This document shows, in pieces, positions 14,814 through 25,003 of a DNA stretch of 64,000 nt. The notes under the pieces were generated by a model. The model searched no databases. It had not been told where the DNA came from and was given only the letters and a program-made list of their open reading frames with translations. The translations under genes were made by a program, and so were the position numbers. Position 1 is the first letter of the stretch. Every line of letters starts with the position of its first letter. This DNA is from an archaeon (GTDB lineage Archaea > Iainarchaeota > Iainarchaeia > Iainarchaeales > Iainarchaeaceae): assembly GCA_038046625.1 (NCBI GenBank), contig JBBSVV010000003.1, forward strand, positions 4,017-68,016, read 5' to 3'.

Positions 14814-15004
14814 AGCGGGATTCAAAGAAGATTGTGAAGTTCTGTTCCCGCTGCGGCTCAACGGATTTGAAGCCGCTTTATTTCATGGAAGCAATCGACA
14901 ATAGAATGCAGTGCATGGGCTGCAATGTGATTGAATTCCCTGTTGAGGGCACTGAAAAGTTTCGGAAAGAATTTTTGGAGGGAAGTAAAAATGCCGGCAA
15001 ATAA
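14810..15004 (+). CDS. Small zinc-ribbon protein
   Basis: CSRCGS...CMGCN CxxC pairs; 64 aa. Confidence 0.3.
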   Translation: MKRDSKKIVKFCSRCGSTDLKPLYFMEAIDNRMQCMGCNVIEFPVEGTEKFRKEFLEGSKNAGK

Positions 15005-18000
15005 CGAGGAAATCGGCACGGTAATAAGCAGCATGGATGGCCCTTCGCCGAGCGCATTGGATGTTGTTATTTATTCCGGAAAATTGCACCGCGGCCAGTT
15101 CGTTGAATTGGATTACAGTGAAGGAACCCTGGTTGCGCTTGTAACCGATGTAGTGAAAACAAACAGGTATTTTGAGCGCGTTGAATCCGTGAAGGAGTTC
15201 GAGCGTTCCGGCACGAAATTGTTCGAGCAGTTTCCTACTGCGGAGTGGGAATACCTTGTTGCAAAAACAAGGCCGCTTGGAGTTTATGATAAGGGCTTGA
15301 TTAAGCGCTCGACTTTTCCGCCTTCACCGGGCACAAAGGTTCGGGTTGCGGAGAAGGAAACGCTTGAAAAGTTTTTGGGCCTTGACCTTGAAAAGGGTTT
15401 GATGCTTGGGGAAATCGAGCACCACGGGGTTTTTGTGAAATTAAATCTCTCCCGCCTTTTCCAGAAGCATCTTGCGATTCTCGCAATGAGCGGCGCCGGG
15501 AAAAGCTATTTGGTTTCTGTTTTGCTCGAGGAATTGTTGGAGAGGAAGAAGGAGGATGGGCGCCTCGCTGTGATTGTGATGGACGCGCACGGCGAATACC
15601 GTTCTTTTGCCGAGCCTGTTCCCGACAAGAAGCACAGCGATTTTTCCTCAAAATCCAGGTTTGTGCGCGCCTCGGAAATCCAGATTGGTGTCCCAAAGCT
15701 TTCAATCGGTTTGCTTGCCGCGCTGATTCCTGGCCTTTCGGCGCCGCAGAAGCGTGACCTCGCAAGGGTTATTGAAAGATTGCGCAAGGAAATGAAAGAT
15801 GGCCTCGGGCCCTTTGACTTCAATGCGGTAAAGGCGGAGATTATGAAGGATTCTGAAATGAAGGAAGTAACAAAGATGTCTCTAATTGGGTGGATAATGT
15901 CCCTCGAGCAGCTTCACTTGTTTGGCAAGACTGATGCGCCCGGAATCAGCGATTTGGTGAAGCCGGGGCAGCTTACAATAATTGATTTGAGCGACGTGAT
16001 TGACCTTAAGAAGAAGCAGATTATTGTCGCGTATTATGCGCGCAAACTTTTTGATGAGAGGCGCGCAAAGCGTGTTCCTCCTTTCAGTATTGTTGTCGAG
16101 GAAGCGCATCAGTTCGCACCAGAAAGGGTTTCAAAAGAAGGTTCCATCAGCAAGCACGTGATTGAAACCATTGCCAGAGAAGGAAGGAAGTTCGGTGCGA
16201 GCATCTGTCTGATTTCGCAGAGGCCGGTTAACCTTTCAACTACGGCTTTGAGCCAGTGTGTTTCACCAGAAACTCAAGTGATTCTTTCAGACGGGCAGGA
16301 GTGTGCCATATCAGATTTCGAAAATAATTATTCCAAGACAAAATTAACAAGCTGCGATATTGAGAAAGGCAAATTGGAAGGGGCATATATTTCGCATTAT
16401 CAAAAAAATAATCCAAAGCAACAGGGGAAAAAATGCTTTGAAATAACTACTGTCGCAGGAAGACAATTAAAATGTACAGGCGACCACCCAATTTGGACAA
16501 AGGGAAAAGGATGGGTTAATGCGGCGGATTTAACTTTCAGCGATAAGGTGGCTATATTGCCGACAATTAAATCATATCCAGGGACTCCTGTTCTTGAAAT
16601 ATCTTCTGACTGCCTATCAGGTCTACTGCCTTCAACAATTAACAAGCAAAGATTGTTTGAAGAATTACAAGAAAAAGGTTTAATAGATAAAGAAATAGAA
16701 CCTCAAAAGATATTGGCTTTGGCGAGGCTCATCGGCCATATTTTTGGCGACGGTTCCCTGCATCCGCCTTACAAAAACAAACAGGGGCAGCATTCGCTGC
16801 GAATTACATTTTCAGGTTCGGAAGAAGATTTGCAGGAAATAAAAAACGATTTGGCATTTCTAGGCTTTAAGTCTGATCAAAAAATAAGCAGGCAAGTCAA
16901 AACTTCATATTCAAACTTTGTAAATTTTGGAAAAAGAAAAATTCACGGAACCTCAATATGTTTCAAAACTGGCATTGTAGGGCTTTGGGCTATTTTAAGA
17001 TTTTTGGGAGCTCCATTAGGGGATAAATCAAACACTAAAGTTTGTATGCCTAAGTGGATTTTAGATTCTCATATTTCCGTCAAAAGGGAATTCCTCTCAT
17101 CTTTGTGCGGAAGCGAATGTTCTGCGATAAGGTGGGACGGAAAATATCCTGATAGGCCTATTCTCCCATTTTCCAAGGTTGAATCGTTAAGCGGGAGCGG
17201 GCATTTGTATGCAAATAGTCTTATTTCTATGTTTCAAGATTTTGGAGTCAAGTCAAACTTATATGTAAGAGATTATGTGTGGAGAAAAGATGGCGCAAAA
17301 AGTCTGCAATTTATTATTTCGATAAATAGGTCGCGAAATAATTTGATTAATTTCTTGTCAAATGTTAACTATCGTTATGCTGTTAAAAAAAGAAGTGCGG
17401 GTTTGCATGTCTTAGAATATTTAAAATGGCTCAACATAAAACTTAATCAGAAAACAGGGCTGTTCAGCGAAGTAAATAAATCTGTCGGCGAAGTTGGTTC
17501 CAAGCAAACTTCATTGATTTATAAAATGCATAAGAAAGTTGTTGAAAACTGGGCAAGTATGGGTGTTGAAAAGTTACGACTCGCCCCGGCAGATAAAATA
17601 CCCGCTTATTCGTATTGGATAAAAGAAAAAACAGAGTCTCTTTCGGCTGGTTTAATTTGGGACGATGTAGAATATATTGAGCCCATTGTGCTTTCTGACG
17701 TAAGAGATATAACTGTTCCAAATCATCATTGTTTTTTTGCTAACGGATTTTTGACCCATAACTGCAACACCCACATTATTCTCCGTGTTACTAATCCTTA
17801 TGATTTGGACCACATCAAGCAGACCAGCGAGGGCATTGACCAAAGGACTGTTGACATGATTACTTCTCTCAGAACAGGCGAAGCCATAATTGTGGGCGAA
17901 GCCGTGAATTATCCCGTGTTTTTCAAGGTGCGCAAAAAAACCGTGCAGGATTCGCGGCACGAAAAGTCCCTCGAGGCTTCCGCTCTGGAGTTTGAGGAGA

Positions 18001-18041
18001 ACCGCGAGGAAAGGACAAAAGAACTTGATGATTTGCTGTGA
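14991..18041 (+). CDS. herA: HerA helicase (FtsK-HerA ATPase) interrupted by a 502-aa LAGLIDADG intein (nt 16257-17762)
   Basis: Walker A (AILAMSGAGKSYLV) and Walker B (IVVEEAHQFAP). The intein starts at Cys (SQ|CVSPETQVILSDG) and ends ...FLTHN|CNTHII, with LAGLIDADG blocks LIGHIFGDGSL / LSSLCGSECS. Start chosen at MPANNEEIG. Confidence 0.8.
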   Translation: MPANNEEIGTVISSMDGPSPSALDVVIYSGKLHRGQFVELDYSEGTLVALVTDVVKTNRYFERVESVKEFERSGTKLFEQFPTAEWEYLVAKTRPLGVYDKGLIKRSTFPPSPGTKVRVAEKETLEKFLGLDLEKGLMLGEIEHHGVFVKLNLSRLFQKHLAILAMSGAGKSYLVSVLLEELLERKKEDGRLAVIVMDAHGEYRSFAEPVPDKKHSDFSSKSRFVRASEIQIGVPKLSIGLLAALIPGLSAPQKRDLARVIERLRKEMKDGLGPFDFNAVKAEIMKDSEMKEVTKMSLIGWIMSLEQLHLFGKTDAPGISDLVKPGQLTIIDLSDVIDLKKKQIIVAYYARKLFDERRAKRVPPFSIVVEEAHQFAPERVSKEGSISKHVIETIAREGRKFGASICLISQRPVNLSTTALSQCVSPETQVILSDGQECAISDFENNYSKTKLTSCDIEKGKLEGAYISHYQKNNPKQQGKKCFEITTVAGRQLKCTGDHPIWTKGKGWVNAADLTFSDKVAILPTIKSYPGTPVLEISSDCLSGLLPSTINKQRLFEELQEKGLIDKEIEPQKILALARLIGHIFGDGSLHPPYKNKQGQHSLRITFSGSEEDLQEIKNDLAFLGFKSDQKISRQVKTSYSNFVNFGKRKIHGTSICFKTGIVGLWAILRFLGAPLGDKSNTKVCMPKWILDSHISVKREFLSSLCGSECSAIRWDGKYPDRPILPFSKVESLSGSGHLYANSLISMFQDFGVKSNLYVRDYVWRKDGAKSLQFIISINRSRNNLINFLSNVNYRYAVKKRSAGLHVLEYLKWLNIKLNQKTGLFSEVNKSVGEVGSKQTSLIYKMHKKVVENWASMGVEKLRLAPADKIPAYSYWIKEKTESLSAGLIWDDVEYIEPIVLSDVRDITVPNHHCFFANGFLTHNCNTHIILRVTNPYDLDHIKQTSEGIDQRTVDMITSLRTGEAIIVGEAVNYPVFFKVRKKTVQDSRHEKSLEASALEFEENREERTKELDDLL

Positions 18042-22471: not shown

Positions 22472-22735
22472 TCAGAGCAGCGTCATACCCTCTATTTCCG
22501 CGTCCTCTACTTCTTTTAGTTTTTTCACTTCTTCAAGAACGCGGTCAATTGCCTTCTCGTCTTTCGAGTTAACCAGTATGCCGGCTTTTATTACTTCGAC
22601 GCCGAAGCCTATTGGTTCGCGTTTCACGTCCTTTACTTCGCCGCTTTTTATGCCCTTTACTGCCTTTACCGTTGCGTCAAGTTTTTCCAGGTCTTTGGCG
22701 TTTATTTTGAGAATTAGAAGCGTTTTGTCCGGCAT
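22472..22735 (-). CDS. ef1b: Elongation factor 1-beta (aEF-1beta)
   Basis: 87 aa; ...REPIGFGVEVIKAGILV... matches the archaeal EF-1beta guanine-nucleotide exchange domain. Confidence 0.7.
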   Translation of the reverse strand: MPDKTLLILKINAKDLEKLDATVKAVKGIKSGEVKDVKREPIGFGVEVIKAGILVNSKDEKAIDRVLEEVKKLKEVEDAEIEGMTLL

Positions 22736-22762
22736 CTTATCACGGGCTCAAATTAGGGCTGC

Positions 22763-22918
22763 TTACGGGCCTTCGAATCCGCATTCTTTGCACTTGTATA
22801 CGAGGCTTCTTTTGCGCGCATCCAAGCTGCGGTCTATTTTTGTGCCGCATCCAGGGCACTTGAACTCAATGAAATCGTCCGTGAGAATTTTGTTGGTTGT
22901 AATGCATGTTTTTATCAT
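22763..22918 (-). CDS. Small zinc-ribbon protein (51 aa), in the position usual for the Zn-finger gene beside ef1b in archaea
   Basis: Hand-translated: MIKTCITTNKILTDDFIEFKCPGCGTKIDRSLDARKRSLVYKCKECGFEGP. CPGC...CKEC zinc ribbon. Below the ORF-track length cutoff. Confidence 0.45.
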   Translation of the reverse strand: MIKTCITTNKILTDDFIEFKCPGCGTKIDRSLDARKRSLVYKCKECGFEGP

Positions 22919-22995
22919 TGAAAAAACCTTATTTTTAGCGGCATTATTTGTCTAGTATTCTCTATTGAGTTACCTTTAAAAAGGTTGATTTCAGC

Positions 22996-23021
22996 CTTTT
23001 TCTTTCTTGCGAGAAAGAAAA
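22996..23021. promoter_or_regulatory. TTTTTCTTTCT-tgcg-AGAAAGAAAAA palindrome upstream of the tRNA-like 5' fragment
   Basis: Same inverted-repeat family as the motifs flanking the tRNAs. Confidence 0.45.
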
Positions 23022-23103
23022 ACGCTGGCGAAAAAGAAAGAGACGGGGCATATTTTTGGCCATAGAACCTTTAATTAAGTGTTTTTCACCCATTTTTTTG
23101 CAC

Positions 23104-23140
23104 GGGCCCGTAGCTCAGCCAGGATAGCGCCCACCTCCGC
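23104..23140 (+). pseudogene. tRNA 5'-half-like fragment (acceptor + D-arm + anticodon-stem 5' strand), related to the 5' half of tRNA-Arg at 24216
   Basis: GGGCCCGTAGCTCAGCCAGGATAGCGCCCACCTCCGC aligns with GGGCTCGTCGCTA...ACGGATAAGCACCCCGCCTTCG. No matching 3' half follows. Its 3' 10 nt (CCACCTCCGC) are complementary to 23274-23283 (GCGGAGGTGG). Confidence 0.45.
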
Positions 23141-23396
23141 AATCGAATTTTTTCCTAAGACTCGGATTTTCTCGGCTTAAACCTTTGCACACTTCAACCC
23201 CTGCTTTTGGTGCAAAGGGTTTAATGCCTCCAAAACCCGCAAGACGTCTTTCGGAAAAAATTTCATCATTTAGCGGAGGTGGTCAAATGGTCGAAATTCC
23301 GATTCCAAACAAAGAAGAAATAGATTTAGCAGTAGAGGCTGAAGAGTTGACGGACAGGGAACTGTGGATTCTTAGCAAGTTTGGAGGTGATTTTGA

Positions 23397-24236
23397 ATGA
23401 ATCTCGCATCGGCAATCAGCCCTCTAAAATTGTATAATAATGCTTCAGAAGTACCTGCCATTATGGGCTTTGATTTTTCGTCAGATTTGGCCGAGGTTTG
23501 CGGCATCCATGCGGGCGACGGATACCTTCGTAATGACGGAAAAAGAAGGGAGCTAGACATCAGCGGCGGCATTGATGAAAAGGAATATTATGATTCGCAT
23601 GTCGTGCCTCTTTTTGAACGAGTTTTTGGAATAAATATTACTCCAAAATTTTTTCCAAAACGTCATACTTACGGTTTTGTAATTCGCGACAGAAACATTG
23701 TTGAGTTTATGCACTCGCTTGGGTTTCCTTATGGGGCAAAAACTTTCACAGTTTCAGTTCCTGAATTTGTTTCCAATTCCAAAAATTTGGATATACTATA
23801 TAGTTTCATTAGGGGCGCTTTTGACACAGATGGTTGCCTAGCTTTTCAAAAGAAAGTGGGAAGCGGCTATAAAAGTGAAGTAAAGAGGAAGCACTCCTTT
23901 CCTGTAGTTCAGATAAGTATCTGCTCTAAACCATTTTGTGATGGGCTGTGTTCACTTTTCAGGAAAACCGGTTTTAACTGCAAAGTTGTCATGCAGAAAC
24001 CTACTTATGACTATCAACACGTGAAATATGCCTTGTATTTGAGGGGTTATTCTAATCTTAAAAGTTGGATGCGCAACATTGGGTTCAAAAATACTTCAAA
24101 ACTATCGCGCTATGAGGTTTGGGAGAAATTCGGTTTTTGTCCTACTAACATTTCTTTTGAGCAGAGAAAACAAATATTAAATAATGAACTTGACCCCAAT
24201 TCCTTCTATAAGCATGGGCTCGTCGCTAACGGATAA
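23397..24236 (+). CDS. Free-standing LAGLIDADG-type homing endonuclease-like protein; its 3' end overlaps the 5' end of tRNA-Arg
   Basis: Motifs LAEVCGIHAGDGYL and LYSFIRGAFDTDGCL. The stop codon (24234-24236) lies 20 nt inside the tRNA. Confidence 0.6.
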   Translation: MNLASAISPLKLYNNASEVPAIMGFDFSSDLAEVCGIHAGDGYLRNDGKRRELDISGGIDEKEYYDSHVVPLFERVFGINITPKFFPKRHTYGFVIRDRNIVEFMHSLGFPYGAKTFTVSVPEFVSNSKNLDILYSFIRGAFDTDGCLAFQKKVGSGYKSEVKRKHSFPVVQISICSKPFCDGLCSLFRKTGFNCKVVMQKPTYDYQHVKYALYLRGYSNLKSWMRNIGFKNTSKLSRYEVWEKFGFCPTNISFEQRKQILNNELDPNSFYKHGLVANG

Positions 24237-24286
24237 GCACCCCGCCTTCGAAGCGGGCGATGAGGGTTCGAATCCCTCCGAGCCCG
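24216..24286 (+). tRNA. tRNA-Arg (anticodon TCG)
   Basis: GGGCTCG-TC-GCTAACGGATAAGC-A-CCCGC-CTTCGAA-GCGGG-CGAT-GAGGGTTCGAATCCCTC-CGAGCCC-G. Perfect acceptor, anticodon and T stems. The D-arm is short (3 bp). Confidence 0.7.
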
Positions 24287-24461
24287 CTGCACTTTCACGC
24301 AGAATCCTTGATTCTGCTGAAACCTGCACTAAAAAGAAAGAGTGCCGGAAAAAGAAAAGACCCCTGTTTCTGGCTCGGCAAGCCGTGCTTGGCCGGTTTC
24401 AATGTGGCCAGGGCTCGCTTTCTTTTAGGCAAGGAATTAATACTCGCAAGTAGTTGTATTT

Positions 24462-24947
24462 TTGATGAAGCCAAAAATATTGCCGCGTGCAAGAAAGTTT
24501 TTGAAAAGGCATAAAGGGAAACTAATTATCCCAGTTGGCCTTGGTATTGCGGTTGCGTCCGCTTCTTTTGGCCCGAAGTTAATTGAGCGCGGTGCAGATT
24601 ACTTGAACGCGCGCAAGGCGGATGCGATGAGGCAACACAGGCTTGACCTTACCGTTGAGCGGGGGAGGTTTGTTAATGAATTTTTTTCAAAGACCGGCGC
24701 TGTTCCTGAATCGAGAGAAGATTGCAATGCCCTCTGGGCATATTATTACAATAAAAGCCCCGCCCTGAAAGGCCTTTGGGAGCCAATTCTCAAAAAAACA
24801 AGGGAGGAAAAGCTCCGTGACCGCGTTTTTGTGCAGGAGTTCGGGGATGCAGGCCTGGAGTTTGAATTGGCGGTTGTGAGGGAAGCGCAACCGGAATTTT
24901 TTAAAAAGGCGCTTGCTTTGGACAAAGGCGCAGCGAAAAAGAAATGA
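24462..24947 (+). CDS. Hypothetical protein with an N-terminal TM segment
   Basis: 161-aa ORF; no recognisable domain. Confidence 0.35.
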   Translation: MMKPKILPRARKFLKRHKGKLIIPVGLGIAVASASFGPKLIERGADYLNARKADAMRQHRLDLTVERGRFVNEFFSKTGAVPESREDCNALWAYYYNKSPALKGLWEPILKKTREEKLRDRVFVQEFGDAGLEFELAVVREAQPEFFKKALALDKGAAKKK

Positions 24948-25003
24948 ACAACCCAAAACAATCCACTGCCTTTAGGCGTGGGTAATTCACTTTTATTGCA
25001 TGT

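Follow-up and report, generated by a model that had tools for sequence, protein, structure and literature searches.

A tRNA 5' stump as the most likely left border of a selfish LAGLIDADG endonuclease cassette in front of tRNA-Arg in a DPANN archaeon

How does the broken 5' end of one tRNA-Arg gene come to lie upstream of an intact tRNA-Arg(TCG) gene, with an endonuclease gene between the two? The question is raised by a stretch of 64,000 nucleotides from an archaeon of the Iainarchaeota (GenBank assembly GCA_038046625.1, contig JBBSVV010000003.1, positions 4,017 to 68,016), here called the window, or W, the features of which are all given on the plus strand. An initial annotation of this DNA had noticed a tRNA 5'-half-like piece at 23104 and taken it for a partial copy of the neighboring tRNA, left by an endonuclease- or integrase-driven insertion or by the decay of a tRNA intron. 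To place the locus among its relatives, we collected related loci (L-numbers; the window is also L001); the closer ones, found via the neighboring EF-1beta protein, which is 75-85% identical to that of W, have the gene order Rad50, EF-1beta, Zn-ribbon, cassette region, CCA-adding enzyme. The tRNA-Arg(TCG) alleles in these loci are of an A-type or a B-type, with a third variant in L213. Our analysis indicates that the stump marks the left edge of what is most likely a selfish cassette, consisting of a leader RNA, a small open reading frame (ORF) and a LAGLIDADG gene, which stands in front of tRNA-Arg in many DPANN archaea.

The piece at 23104 was confirmed as a real tRNA-Arg-type fragment. Its sequence (GGGCCCGTAGCTCAGCCAGGATAGCGCC) comprises an acceptor strand, T8 and a D-arm with one mismatch (T12/C23), and it is best described as an orphan 5' stump of an A-type tRNA-Arg(TCG) at 23104-23130, covering tRNA positions 1 to ~24-27. 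It is joined directly to the first base of the cassette leader, although the junction can be placed only to 23127-23131, i.e., tRNA positions 24-27. Positions 23104-23127 are identical to the first 24 nt of the L212 tRNA-Arg(TCG) at 23 of 24 positions, a match for which shuffled sequences gave an expectation of 0.00 in the window. When the comparison was extended to 28 nt, the stump matched L212 at 24 positions, L031 and L216 at 22, and L209 at 20, as against 17 for the B-type alleles of L208 and L211 and 16 for W's own tRNA. Since the matches across alleles follow this pattern, the stump is an A-type piece while the intact gene downstream is B-type; it derives from a second tRNA-Arg(TCG) allele type, of which close relatives have intact copies. 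The idea that it copies the 5' half of its neighbor was therefore abandoned (16/28 to the neighbor vs. 24/28 to L212). The stump itself is an ordinary scar, of value as the marker of an event.

Searches for a larger tRNA around the stump were negative. A profile of Arg tRNA 5' halves recovered it with nhmmer only at E = 0.15, and the Rfam tRNA model gave no tRNA match when the search was confined to 23060-23131, an end point chosen to permit a truncated match, because the stump is too short. ARAGORN with introns permitted found nothing at 23104, ruling against a second complete tRNA with an intron there, and the one complete tRNA near the stump by ARAGORN and Rfam is the tRNA-Arg(TCG) at 24216-24287. 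No credible 3' partner (a CGGGCCC acceptor strand plus T-arm) was present in the 64 kb, nor was there in the window a separate 3' half of the split-tRNA type with a leader pairing with the stump's 3' sequence. Immediately 3' of 23282 there is neither a T-arm nor an acceptor strand; a small ORF starts there instead.

What follows the stump is a conserved, rod-shaped leader RNA at 23131-23282, identified by its fold, covariation and homologues. Its basal helix is formed by an anti-Shine-Dalgarno (anti-SD) strand, CCACCTCCGC (23131-23140), and its complement, GCGGAGGTGG (23273-23282), which holds the Shine-Dalgarno (SD) sequence of the small ORF. The initial annotation had seen this perfect 10-nt pairing, and the pairing stands; its 3' arm, however, lies at 23273-23282 and not 23274-23283, leaving 132 rather than 133 nt between the arms. 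The inner hairpin that it described is also present (23179-23190 / 23210-23221). Assignment of the 10 nt of CCACCTCCGC to a tRNA anticodon stem did not survive comparison with L031, the nearest relative with the gene, where the same rod, including CCACCTCCGC and GCGGAGGTGG, has no acceptor strand or D-arm before it. Equivalent anti-SD strands open the leader in the other 30 aligned copies. Thus, the hairpin by the stump is the cassette's own conserved leader RNA and not tRNA debris, and the earlier suspicion of a structured RNA rather than inert debris is borne out.

The evidence for conservation of this structure is extensive. The segment 23104-23300 folds as a long rod of -62.6 kcal/mol (z = -3.3 vs. 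shuffles), with an invariant core (TTCTCGGCTTAAACCTTT ... TTTAATGCCTCCAAAA) and invariant internal loops (TTCTCGGCTTAAACC / TTTAATGCCTCCAAAA). Leader copies were gathered from a metagenome scan with the invariant core and from loci already fetched, and 32 distinct homologues were aligned (the window, L031, L006, L008, L013, L014, L017, L021 and 24 metagenome loci). Across the 28 pairs of the consensus, 94.9% of cells were paired, compared to 88.2% in shuffles, and 59 cells carried double changes, compared to 17.9 in shuffles; neither observed value was reached in any of 500 shuffles. When the pairing partner was slid by 1-3 columns as a control, pairing fell to 37-59%. In every copy, GGAGG lies in the strand that closes the basal helix on its 3' side, shortly upstream of the small ORF's start codon. 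Between W and L031, the leader is the best-conserved stretch, with 48, 57 and 49 identities per row of 60 vs. 34-50 of 60 in the coding flanks. Considering that Rfam gave no credible leader match over 22500-25000 at E <= 10, we regard the leader as a candidate new RNA family.

In other genomes, the leader and small ORF precede different, larger ORFs with LAGLIDADG-like motifs, for which assignment to the family is tentative (L089, hhalign E = 4.7e-4 at 32% probability; L108, Pfam E = 0.002, below cutoff). Leader and small ORF together thus resemble a common 5' module of endonuclease operons. Some of these larger ORFs end at tRNAs on the opposite strand, such as L108 8156-9361 at a tRNA-Ile (c9282-9355) and L157 320-1378 at a tRNA-Arg(CCT) (c1380-1470). 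At the 3' end of the leaders of L006 (2817-2827) and L158, the stretch from SD to start codon, GG(C/T)GGTTCGAATG, looks like a T-arm. Likewise, the CTCCG/CGGAG pairing at the base of the rod in W is like that of an A-type anticodon stem, and GGTGGTTCGAATG in L006 and L158 is T-arm-like. Since an SD/anti-SD pair is needed in any case, most of this tRNA-like appearance is explained by it; descent of the leader from an intron-bearing tRNA is an unproven idea, and the resemblance could equally be chance.

The small ORF (23287-23400, 37 codons) starts 4 nt after the SD, and its TGA overlaps the ATG of the endonuclease gene (ATGA). It also follows the leader in L031, L006, L013, L014, L017, L088, L089, L095, L112, L113, L126, L142, L156 and L157. 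The homologous products are 37-50 aa long and share the pattern ..P.P..EEI....A....L..RE.W.L..F.GD.., and the protein had no match in Pfam. Shortly downstream, at 23405-23441, we recognized by eye a conserved DNA motif, CGCATCGGCA .. CTCTAAAA .. TATAATAAT, in the poorly conserved N-terminal extension of the long ORF (disordered first 22 residues). An equivalent, C(A/G)C(C/T)GG(C/A)A .. CTC..AAA .. TATA-like box, precedes the endonuclease core ORF in most related loci (also by eye), inside the ORF at some and outside it at others (e.g., L084 2948-2982 and L016 1991-2025). In some loci labeled Woesearchaeota the motif is tandemly repeated (L024, GGCACTAGGCACTGGACACTGGAC). Most endonuclease homologues start near residue 23-30, and the motif probably acts as a promoter or operator within the ORF, giving a short endonuclease that starts at ATG 23463; as an operator it could serve autoregulation. 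It also loosely resembles the tRNA-Arg D-loop (CCTGGATA).

The gene that follows is free-standing, is coupled in translation to the small ORF and encodes 279 aa with two LAGLIDADG motifs (23397-24236; alternative start 23463). As initially annotated, it ends inside the intact tRNA-Arg: its reading frame meets no stop until it is within the tRNA, where the TAA at 24234-24236 corresponds to tRNA positions 19-21, in the D-loop. Family databases alone did not identify the protein. PF14528 scored 12.5 bits, below its cutoff of 22.5, and NCBIfam returned weak partial matches to intein-containing proteins only. However, many of its 363 homologues carry PF14528, and in an alignment of 26 homologues the aspartates D41 and D145 of the two motifs (..LAEVCGIHAGDGYL.. 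and ..FIRGAFDTDGCL..) are invariant. An AlphaFold model (pLDDT 88.8, pTM 0.85; residues 1-20 disordered) has the duplicated alpha-beta-beta-alpha-beta-beta-alpha core, and the top Foldseek matches, 34 at E <= 1e-3, were all LAGLIDADG proteins, including I-Tsp061I (TM 0.79 normalized to target, rmsd 2.8), I-DmoI, PI-SceI and the TliVMA intein endonuclease (E = 4.6e-11). By alignment and modeled structure, though not by Pfam alone, the product is thus predicted to be a LAGLIDADG endonuclease, with an extra C-terminal helical region at ~residues 218-271. A scan of viral contigs found no relative of it. Elsewhere in the window, 5 kb upstream, a DUF87 (HerA-like) ATPase gene (~14991-18041; L001 1595-4645) has a precomputed intein-splicing domain match, and an intein there would be a second homing-type selfish element in W.

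If the cassette is mobile, relatives should differ in its presence, and this is what the comparison of the tRNA-Arg locus showed: with the same gene order, the cassette was intact, degraded or absent. W, L031, L084 and L219-L221 are occupied, while L209, L211 and L213 are empty; the endonuclease is also absent from L212 and L216. The occupied L031 (EF-1beta 73%) has an endonuclease 72% identical to that of W. In the empty L211 (EF-1beta 78%), a B-type tRNA begins ~50 nt after the promoter; L209 (79%) has an A-type tRNA; and in L213 (78%) the third variant begins 34 nt after the promoter, with a 105-aa ORF downstream. L208, with an EF-1beta 85% identical to W's, retains directly before its B-type tRNA a remnant consisting of the last 45 endonuclease codons (residues 230-274; 78% identity, E = 7e-19). 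In front of A-type tRNAs, L212 (78%) has an unrelated 183-aa ORF and L216-L218 (75%) a TnpB gene. As read from these sequences, the series corresponds to the usual life cycle of a homing endonuclease, and from such cassette states an endonuclease-linked insertion history, as the initial annotation had suggested among other things, is the best reading of the locus.

The relatives also locate the insertion point. The promoter and the 34 nt of spacer behind it are common to L031 and L213; the next base is tRNA position +1 in L213 and the first base of the leader in L031. Therefore, the cassette in this clean case occupies exactly the junction between spacer and tRNA +1. By comparison with L213 and L216, insertion was thus at +1 and not, as had been proposed, into the 5' part of the tRNA. 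We considered whether the 34 nt before the leader in L031 might be a decayed stump, and rejected this on the basis of their homology to the native promoter-tRNA spacer of L213. The A-type tRNA of L031 is 100% identical to that of the endonuclease-free L216, and the tRNA allele does not track the host: W and L084 (EF-1beta 66%) have the B-type, and L031 (EF-1beta 73%) the A-type.

Other events have occurred at the same spot. Up to the promoter (CCTTTAAAAAGGTT), L211 and L212 agree at every one of 4489 nt; past it they show no relationship. The two come from different samples and have the same EF-1beta protein; in L211 the B-type tRNA follows directly, and in L212 the 183-aa ORF and then an A-type tRNA. 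The difference is a very recent replacement at this spot. The TnpB genes (IS605 OrfB / Cas12f-like) lie between the Zn-ribbon gene and tRNA-Arg, at L216 2426-3604, L217 247-1425 and L218 157-1335, so that two unrelated kinds of mobile nuclease gene use the site. In the W region, there was no integrase or transposase among the ORFs and no tRNA-derived direct repeat of the att type. Pfam gave no match for the neighboring ORFs (161 aa in W, 135 aa in L031, 217 aa in L084, 183 aa in L212).

Association with tRNA genes extends well beyond these close relatives. Among 45 loci with an endonuclease at least 39% identical to that of W, a tRNA on the same strand comes right after the endonuclease ORF in 42, the others being L020 and L042, which are at contig ends, and L044. 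The tRNA starts -16 to +37 nt from the stop codon in 34 loci and 66-178 nt downstream in four; in L084, the endonuclease ORF reads through the tRNA. In L024, L029 and L041, ARAGORN found no tRNA, presumably because of long introns, and nhmmer found both halves. The anticodon called by ARAGORN was Arg(TCG) in 27 of 38, and the calls varied in the other 11, all of which contain introns; overall, introns of 13-90 nt are present in roughly half of the tRNA-Arg genes linked to an endonuclease. In many homologues, the C-terminus is a literal translation of a tRNA 5' end. In a scan of one genome per species, relatives of the endonuclease were found in assemblies labeled Iainarchaeum/Diapherotrites and Woese-, Pace-, Nano-, Micr- and Aenigmatarchaeota. 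Paralogues of 29-37% identity stand before tRNA-Leu (AAG, CAA, TAA) in 14 loci and before Met, Ala, Val, Ser or Gly tRNAs elsewhere (among L050-L083, e.g., L050, L051, L053, L057, L059, L065, L073, L077 and L082), and one genome may have several (JABHLH01 has L026, L052 and L073). The endonuclease family is thus strictly linked to the 5' side of tRNAs across DPANN.

The intact tRNA-Arg(TCG) of W (24216-24287; ARAGORN, and 52.7 bits with Rfam) is a functional B-type gene with a short D-loop, differing at a handful of positions from those of L208 and L211, which have no working endonuclease, and of L084. Since the cassette ends exactly at tRNA +1, the ORF lacks a stop of its own. For the same reason, a TATA-like sequence (ATATTAAATAAT) at 24174-24185, -42 to -31 from the tRNA and within the conserved C-terminal coding sequence (..QILNNELDPN..), suggests itself as a replacement promoter: this stretch (ATATTAAATAA) is conserved in W, L031, L084 and the L208 remnant, and the cassette may supply it to the tRNA. 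L208 keeps precisely the part of the gene that holds this candidate promoter, and the sequence coding for the extra C-terminal helical region of the protein overlaps it.

The DNA immediately upstream of the stump is rearranged. A promoter block, P1 (ACCTTTAAAAAGGTTGATTT, 22972-22991), is common to all relatives of this neighborhood in the alignment, where it stands before either tRNA-Arg or the cassette. It is followed at 22992-23048 by a 16-bp hairpin (CAGCCTTTTTCTTTCT / AGAAAGAAAAACGCTG) and GCGAAAAAGAAAGAGACGGGG, which are part of a ~115-nt block missing from L031; the hairpin-plus-GCGAAAAAGAAAGAGACGGGG element resembles the usual 3' flank of tRNA-Arg, and a similar one lies just after the tRNA in L209 and L219. 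A promoter copy, P2 (23067-23099), is 73% identical to P1 (22972-23004), and its TATA-like CCTTTAATTAAG lies at ~-36 to -25 from the stump, which by eye is the spacing of the native tRNA-Arg promoters of L211 and L216; P2 is thus a putative promoter. The tRNA-Arg(TCG) of L219 (2251-2414) has a 90-nt intron holding a hairpin-plus-GGCTGGCGAAAAA element, which is also present just after the same tRNA and is possibly a small mobile element acting as an intron. The 12-nt AAAAAGAAAGAG occurs three times in the window, at 23031, 24331 and 32656 (0.05 expected), and two of the copies bracket the block from P2 through the stump and cassette to the tRNA. Related units (CCAAAAAGAAA.G.G, GGAAAAAGAAAAG) recur in the intergenic DNA of this genome and of relatives. 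A target-site duplication was considered for AAAAAGAAAGAG and discarded: the third copy lies in a run of similar tandem units between genes, and AAAAAGAAAGAG is thus a general motif of intergenic DNA.

Is the stump of W an isolated accident? We searched for orphan tRNA pieces at other loci with profiles of Arg tRNA halves, and by comparing each tRNA with its own flanks. The latter test recovered L019 and L016 and missed W and L084, because their stumps derive from another allele. In L084, the native promoter is followed by a ~32-nt 5' piece that runs into the CACCGG motif, and 11 nt after the intact tRNA there is a 3' piece; the acceptor strands of the two pair, the anticodon is missing, and the piece resembles the tRNA-Val of W about as much as tRNA-Arg. 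L019 has one 5' piece and two 3' pieces, the outer of which pairs with the 5' piece. In L016, 12 nt identical to the start of its own tRNA are fused to the cassette motif; in L033, a 5' piece runs into the endonuclease ATG; in L039, a pseudo-tRNA lies between the endonuclease gene and the tRNA; and in L113, a 5' piece, different from the stump of W, lies ~25 nt before a leader. Orphan pieces thus occur at six other occupied loci of ~50 and at none of the six distinct endonuclease-free loci, nor were they seen in three further occupied loci. This association with the cassette is suggestive but not strong.

These observations can be brought together in a model that we hold to be probable, in which the stump is the promoter-proximal remnant of an A-type tRNA-Arg(UCG) fused to a mobile cassette, i.e., the scar of an invasion or an allele replacement. 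The endonuclease would cut tRNA-Arg loci that lack the cassette, both its cleavage site and its homing activity being postulated from sequence, and repair would copy the cassette, often together with the linked tRNA allele, from an occupied donor. With homology on both sides, the outcome would be a clean insertion at +1, as in L031. If homology were missing upstream, illegitimate joining of the incoming cassette to what resection had spared of the resident tRNA's 5' part could produce a stump; the same kind of joining may sometimes leave a 3' stump. The promoter that once served the broken tRNA gene would probably now transcribe the cassette, in an RNA that begins with the stump. To judge from its anatomy, the leader would then hold translation of the small ORF and the endonuclease low by masking the ribosome-binding site, and a second promoter within the cassette may yield a short form of the enzyme.

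Several points weigh against this model. Every mechanistic step in it is an inference. The evidence on the cut site conflicts, since the cassette is at +1 while the stumps break at tRNA positions 12-32 and the orphan 3' pieces start at ~tRNA positions 39-49, also off +1. A rule by which the endonuclease cuts A-type and spares B-type alleles was rejected, as the L031 endonuclease (72% identical) stands beside an A-type tRNA identical to an endonuclease-free allele. The rearrangements of W at 22992-23103, with a duplicated promoter and a relocated hairpin, are not accounted for. With only six endonuclease-free loci, the absence of stumps from them is a weak statistic. Finally, TnpB and unrelated ORFs occur at the same spot, and other recombination could have made the stump.

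Since other recombination acts at this spot, an origin of the stump without the endonuclease keeps some weight. The stump could be a by-product of an IS200/605-type TnpB, of tandem duplication and deletion, or of an unseen integrase at a recombination hot spot, with the endonuclease a mere neighbor. The gap between the Zn-ribbon and CCA-adding enzyme genes does hold TnpB in L216-L218 and unrelated ORFs in L212 and L213, a duplicated promoter and displaced hairpin lie next to the stump of W, and the abrupt divergence of L211 and L212 at the promoter involved no endonuclease. Yet the W region has no transposase, integrase or att-like tRNA repeat, the stump runs without a break into the first base of the leader, and orphan pieces abut the cassette at five other, unrelated loci and are found in no endonuclease-free locus; we therefore consider this origin unlikely. 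Because no integrase, att-type repeat, bulge-helix-bulge or 3' partner was found, the integrase-driven and decayed-intron variants offered by the initial annotation are both unsupported. It is improbable, too, that the protein has been domesticated as a DNA-binding factor or maturase for tRNA, with the stump as a functional tRNA-like 5' module of the mRNA for processing, stability or regulation. Such a role would fit a gene conserved at the same position across DPANN phyla at 40-72% identity, a fold that also matches the LAGLIDADG-derived regulator WhiA and the bI3 maturase, and the correctly spaced promoter before the stump. However, the gene is dispensable, since the closest relatives lack it or retain a degraded copy; neither catalytic aspartate varies; the stump has a mismatch in its D-stem; and it is missing from L031 and the other 30 aligned leaders, except for the different stump of L113.

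A functional interrupted tRNA of which the stump would be the 5' exon or half, either with a giant intron holding the endonuclease or split as in Nanoarchaeum, might be supposed from the stump's own promoter and the long helix after it, as in split halves and long archaeal introns, and from the split and intron-rich tRNA genes for which DPANN are generally known. We consider this highly improbable. In archaea, the bulge-helix-bulge at exon-intron borders has two 3-nt bulges separated by a 4-bp helix; read by hand, the structure here is instead an uninterrupted 10-bp stem with a 5 x 10 nt internal loop. Moreover, the same helix occurs without the tRNA part in other genomes, always holding the SD of an ORF, the 64 kb contains no CGGGCCC with a T-arm, ARAGORN with introns finds nothing, and an intact tRNA-Arg(TCG) already lies downstream. 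Chance resemblance to a tRNA is scarcely conceivable: the lack of a truncated Rfam match at 23060-23131 and the modest nhmmer E of 0.15 would allow it, but 23 of 24 positions agree with the tRNA-Arg of a close relative, where 0.00 such matches are expected, and the piece is spaced correctly behind a promoter block, which led us to discard it. The scar of cassette invasion or allele replacement thus remains the reading that we prefer.

Among known systems, the nearest analogue in its working is the intronless homing of T-even phages, and the nearest relatives of the protein are the LAGLIDADG enzymes of archaeal introns and inteins. Free-standing T-even endonucleases (SegF, SegG, MobE) carry out intronless homing, and SegB lies in the T4 tRNA gene cluster. 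Such genes are described as intergenic, polymorphic in presence and absence, and carrying linked flanking alleles along (PMC2790892, PMC13096335). The cassette of W similarly lies between genes and beside conserved ones (tRNAs in the case of SegB), shows presence/absence polymorphism and apparently carries linked alleles. It differs in that its enzyme is a LAGLIDADG rather than a GIY-YIG or HNH protein, that it resides in an archaeal chromosome rather than a phage, that it ends at tRNA +1 and has a structured leader and small ORF, and that it is known from sequence alone. With archaeal intron and intein enzymes (I-Tsp061I, I-DmoI, PI-SceI-like, TliVMA), the protein shares the fold and a single chain with two motifs; unlike theirs, its gene lies outside any bulge-helix-bulge intron or intein, and the host gene is left uninterrupted rather than being repaired by splicing.

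An orphan partial tRNA beside a mobile element and an intact tRNA also recalls the att scars of integrative elements. Integrase scars are usually 3' tRNA parts that repeat the resident tRNA exactly; the stump of W, in contrast, is a 5' part from a different allele, with no integrase and no repeat. Its promoter-borne 5' portion followed by a long helix, in a DPANN organism, is reminiscent of the split and intron-containing tRNAs of Nanoarchaeota and Thermoproteales, but no partner half or bulge-helix-bulge was found and an intact gene with the same anticodon is 1.1 kb away. Group I introns in tRNA genes of Patescibacteria were considered as a precedent and set aside, as the paper concerns a different situation. 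As for the leader, translation of I-TevI in phage T4 is controlled by an RNA hairpin that sequesters the ribosome-binding site. In W, the SD of the first ORF of the endonuclease operon is likewise paired in a stable helix; unlike in I-TevI, the leader is a conserved ~150-nt rod with invariant internal loops, shared by operons of different endonuclease-like proteins. Full-text searches, with most subscription journals outside their coverage, turned up no description of a tRNA-fronting cassette of this arrangement.

The familiar settings of homing endonucleases are introns, inteins and the intergenic regions of phages. The gene of W belongs to a LAGLIDADG family in archaeal chromosomes that stands directly before tRNAs, taking the position of the tRNA promoter and putatively supplying a replacement; a new conserved structured RNA and a small protein accompany such endonuclease genes. 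The series of empty, occupied and decayed sites, along with two strains identical up to the insertion point, makes the target and the mechanism directly testable. The family may also be a selective agent on the sequence and architecture of tRNA genes in lineages best known for broken-up tRNA genes. Conceivably, though we think it rather doubtful, the cassette and its linked tRNA allele form a "cleave-and-replace" drive on an essential single-copy tRNA gene, which would select for the introns and splits of DPANN tRNAs. If so, the element would survive by bringing or keeping an uncut copy of the tRNA and its promoter, and the paralogues would act alike at tRNA-Leu, Met, Ala, Val and Ser. Under such a drive, it would be an advantage for a tRNA gene to gain an intron, shift in sequence or split, as the target site would thereby be lost. 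There is an old idea that interruption shields tRNA genes from mobile elements, and this drive, if real, would provide a concrete agent for it.

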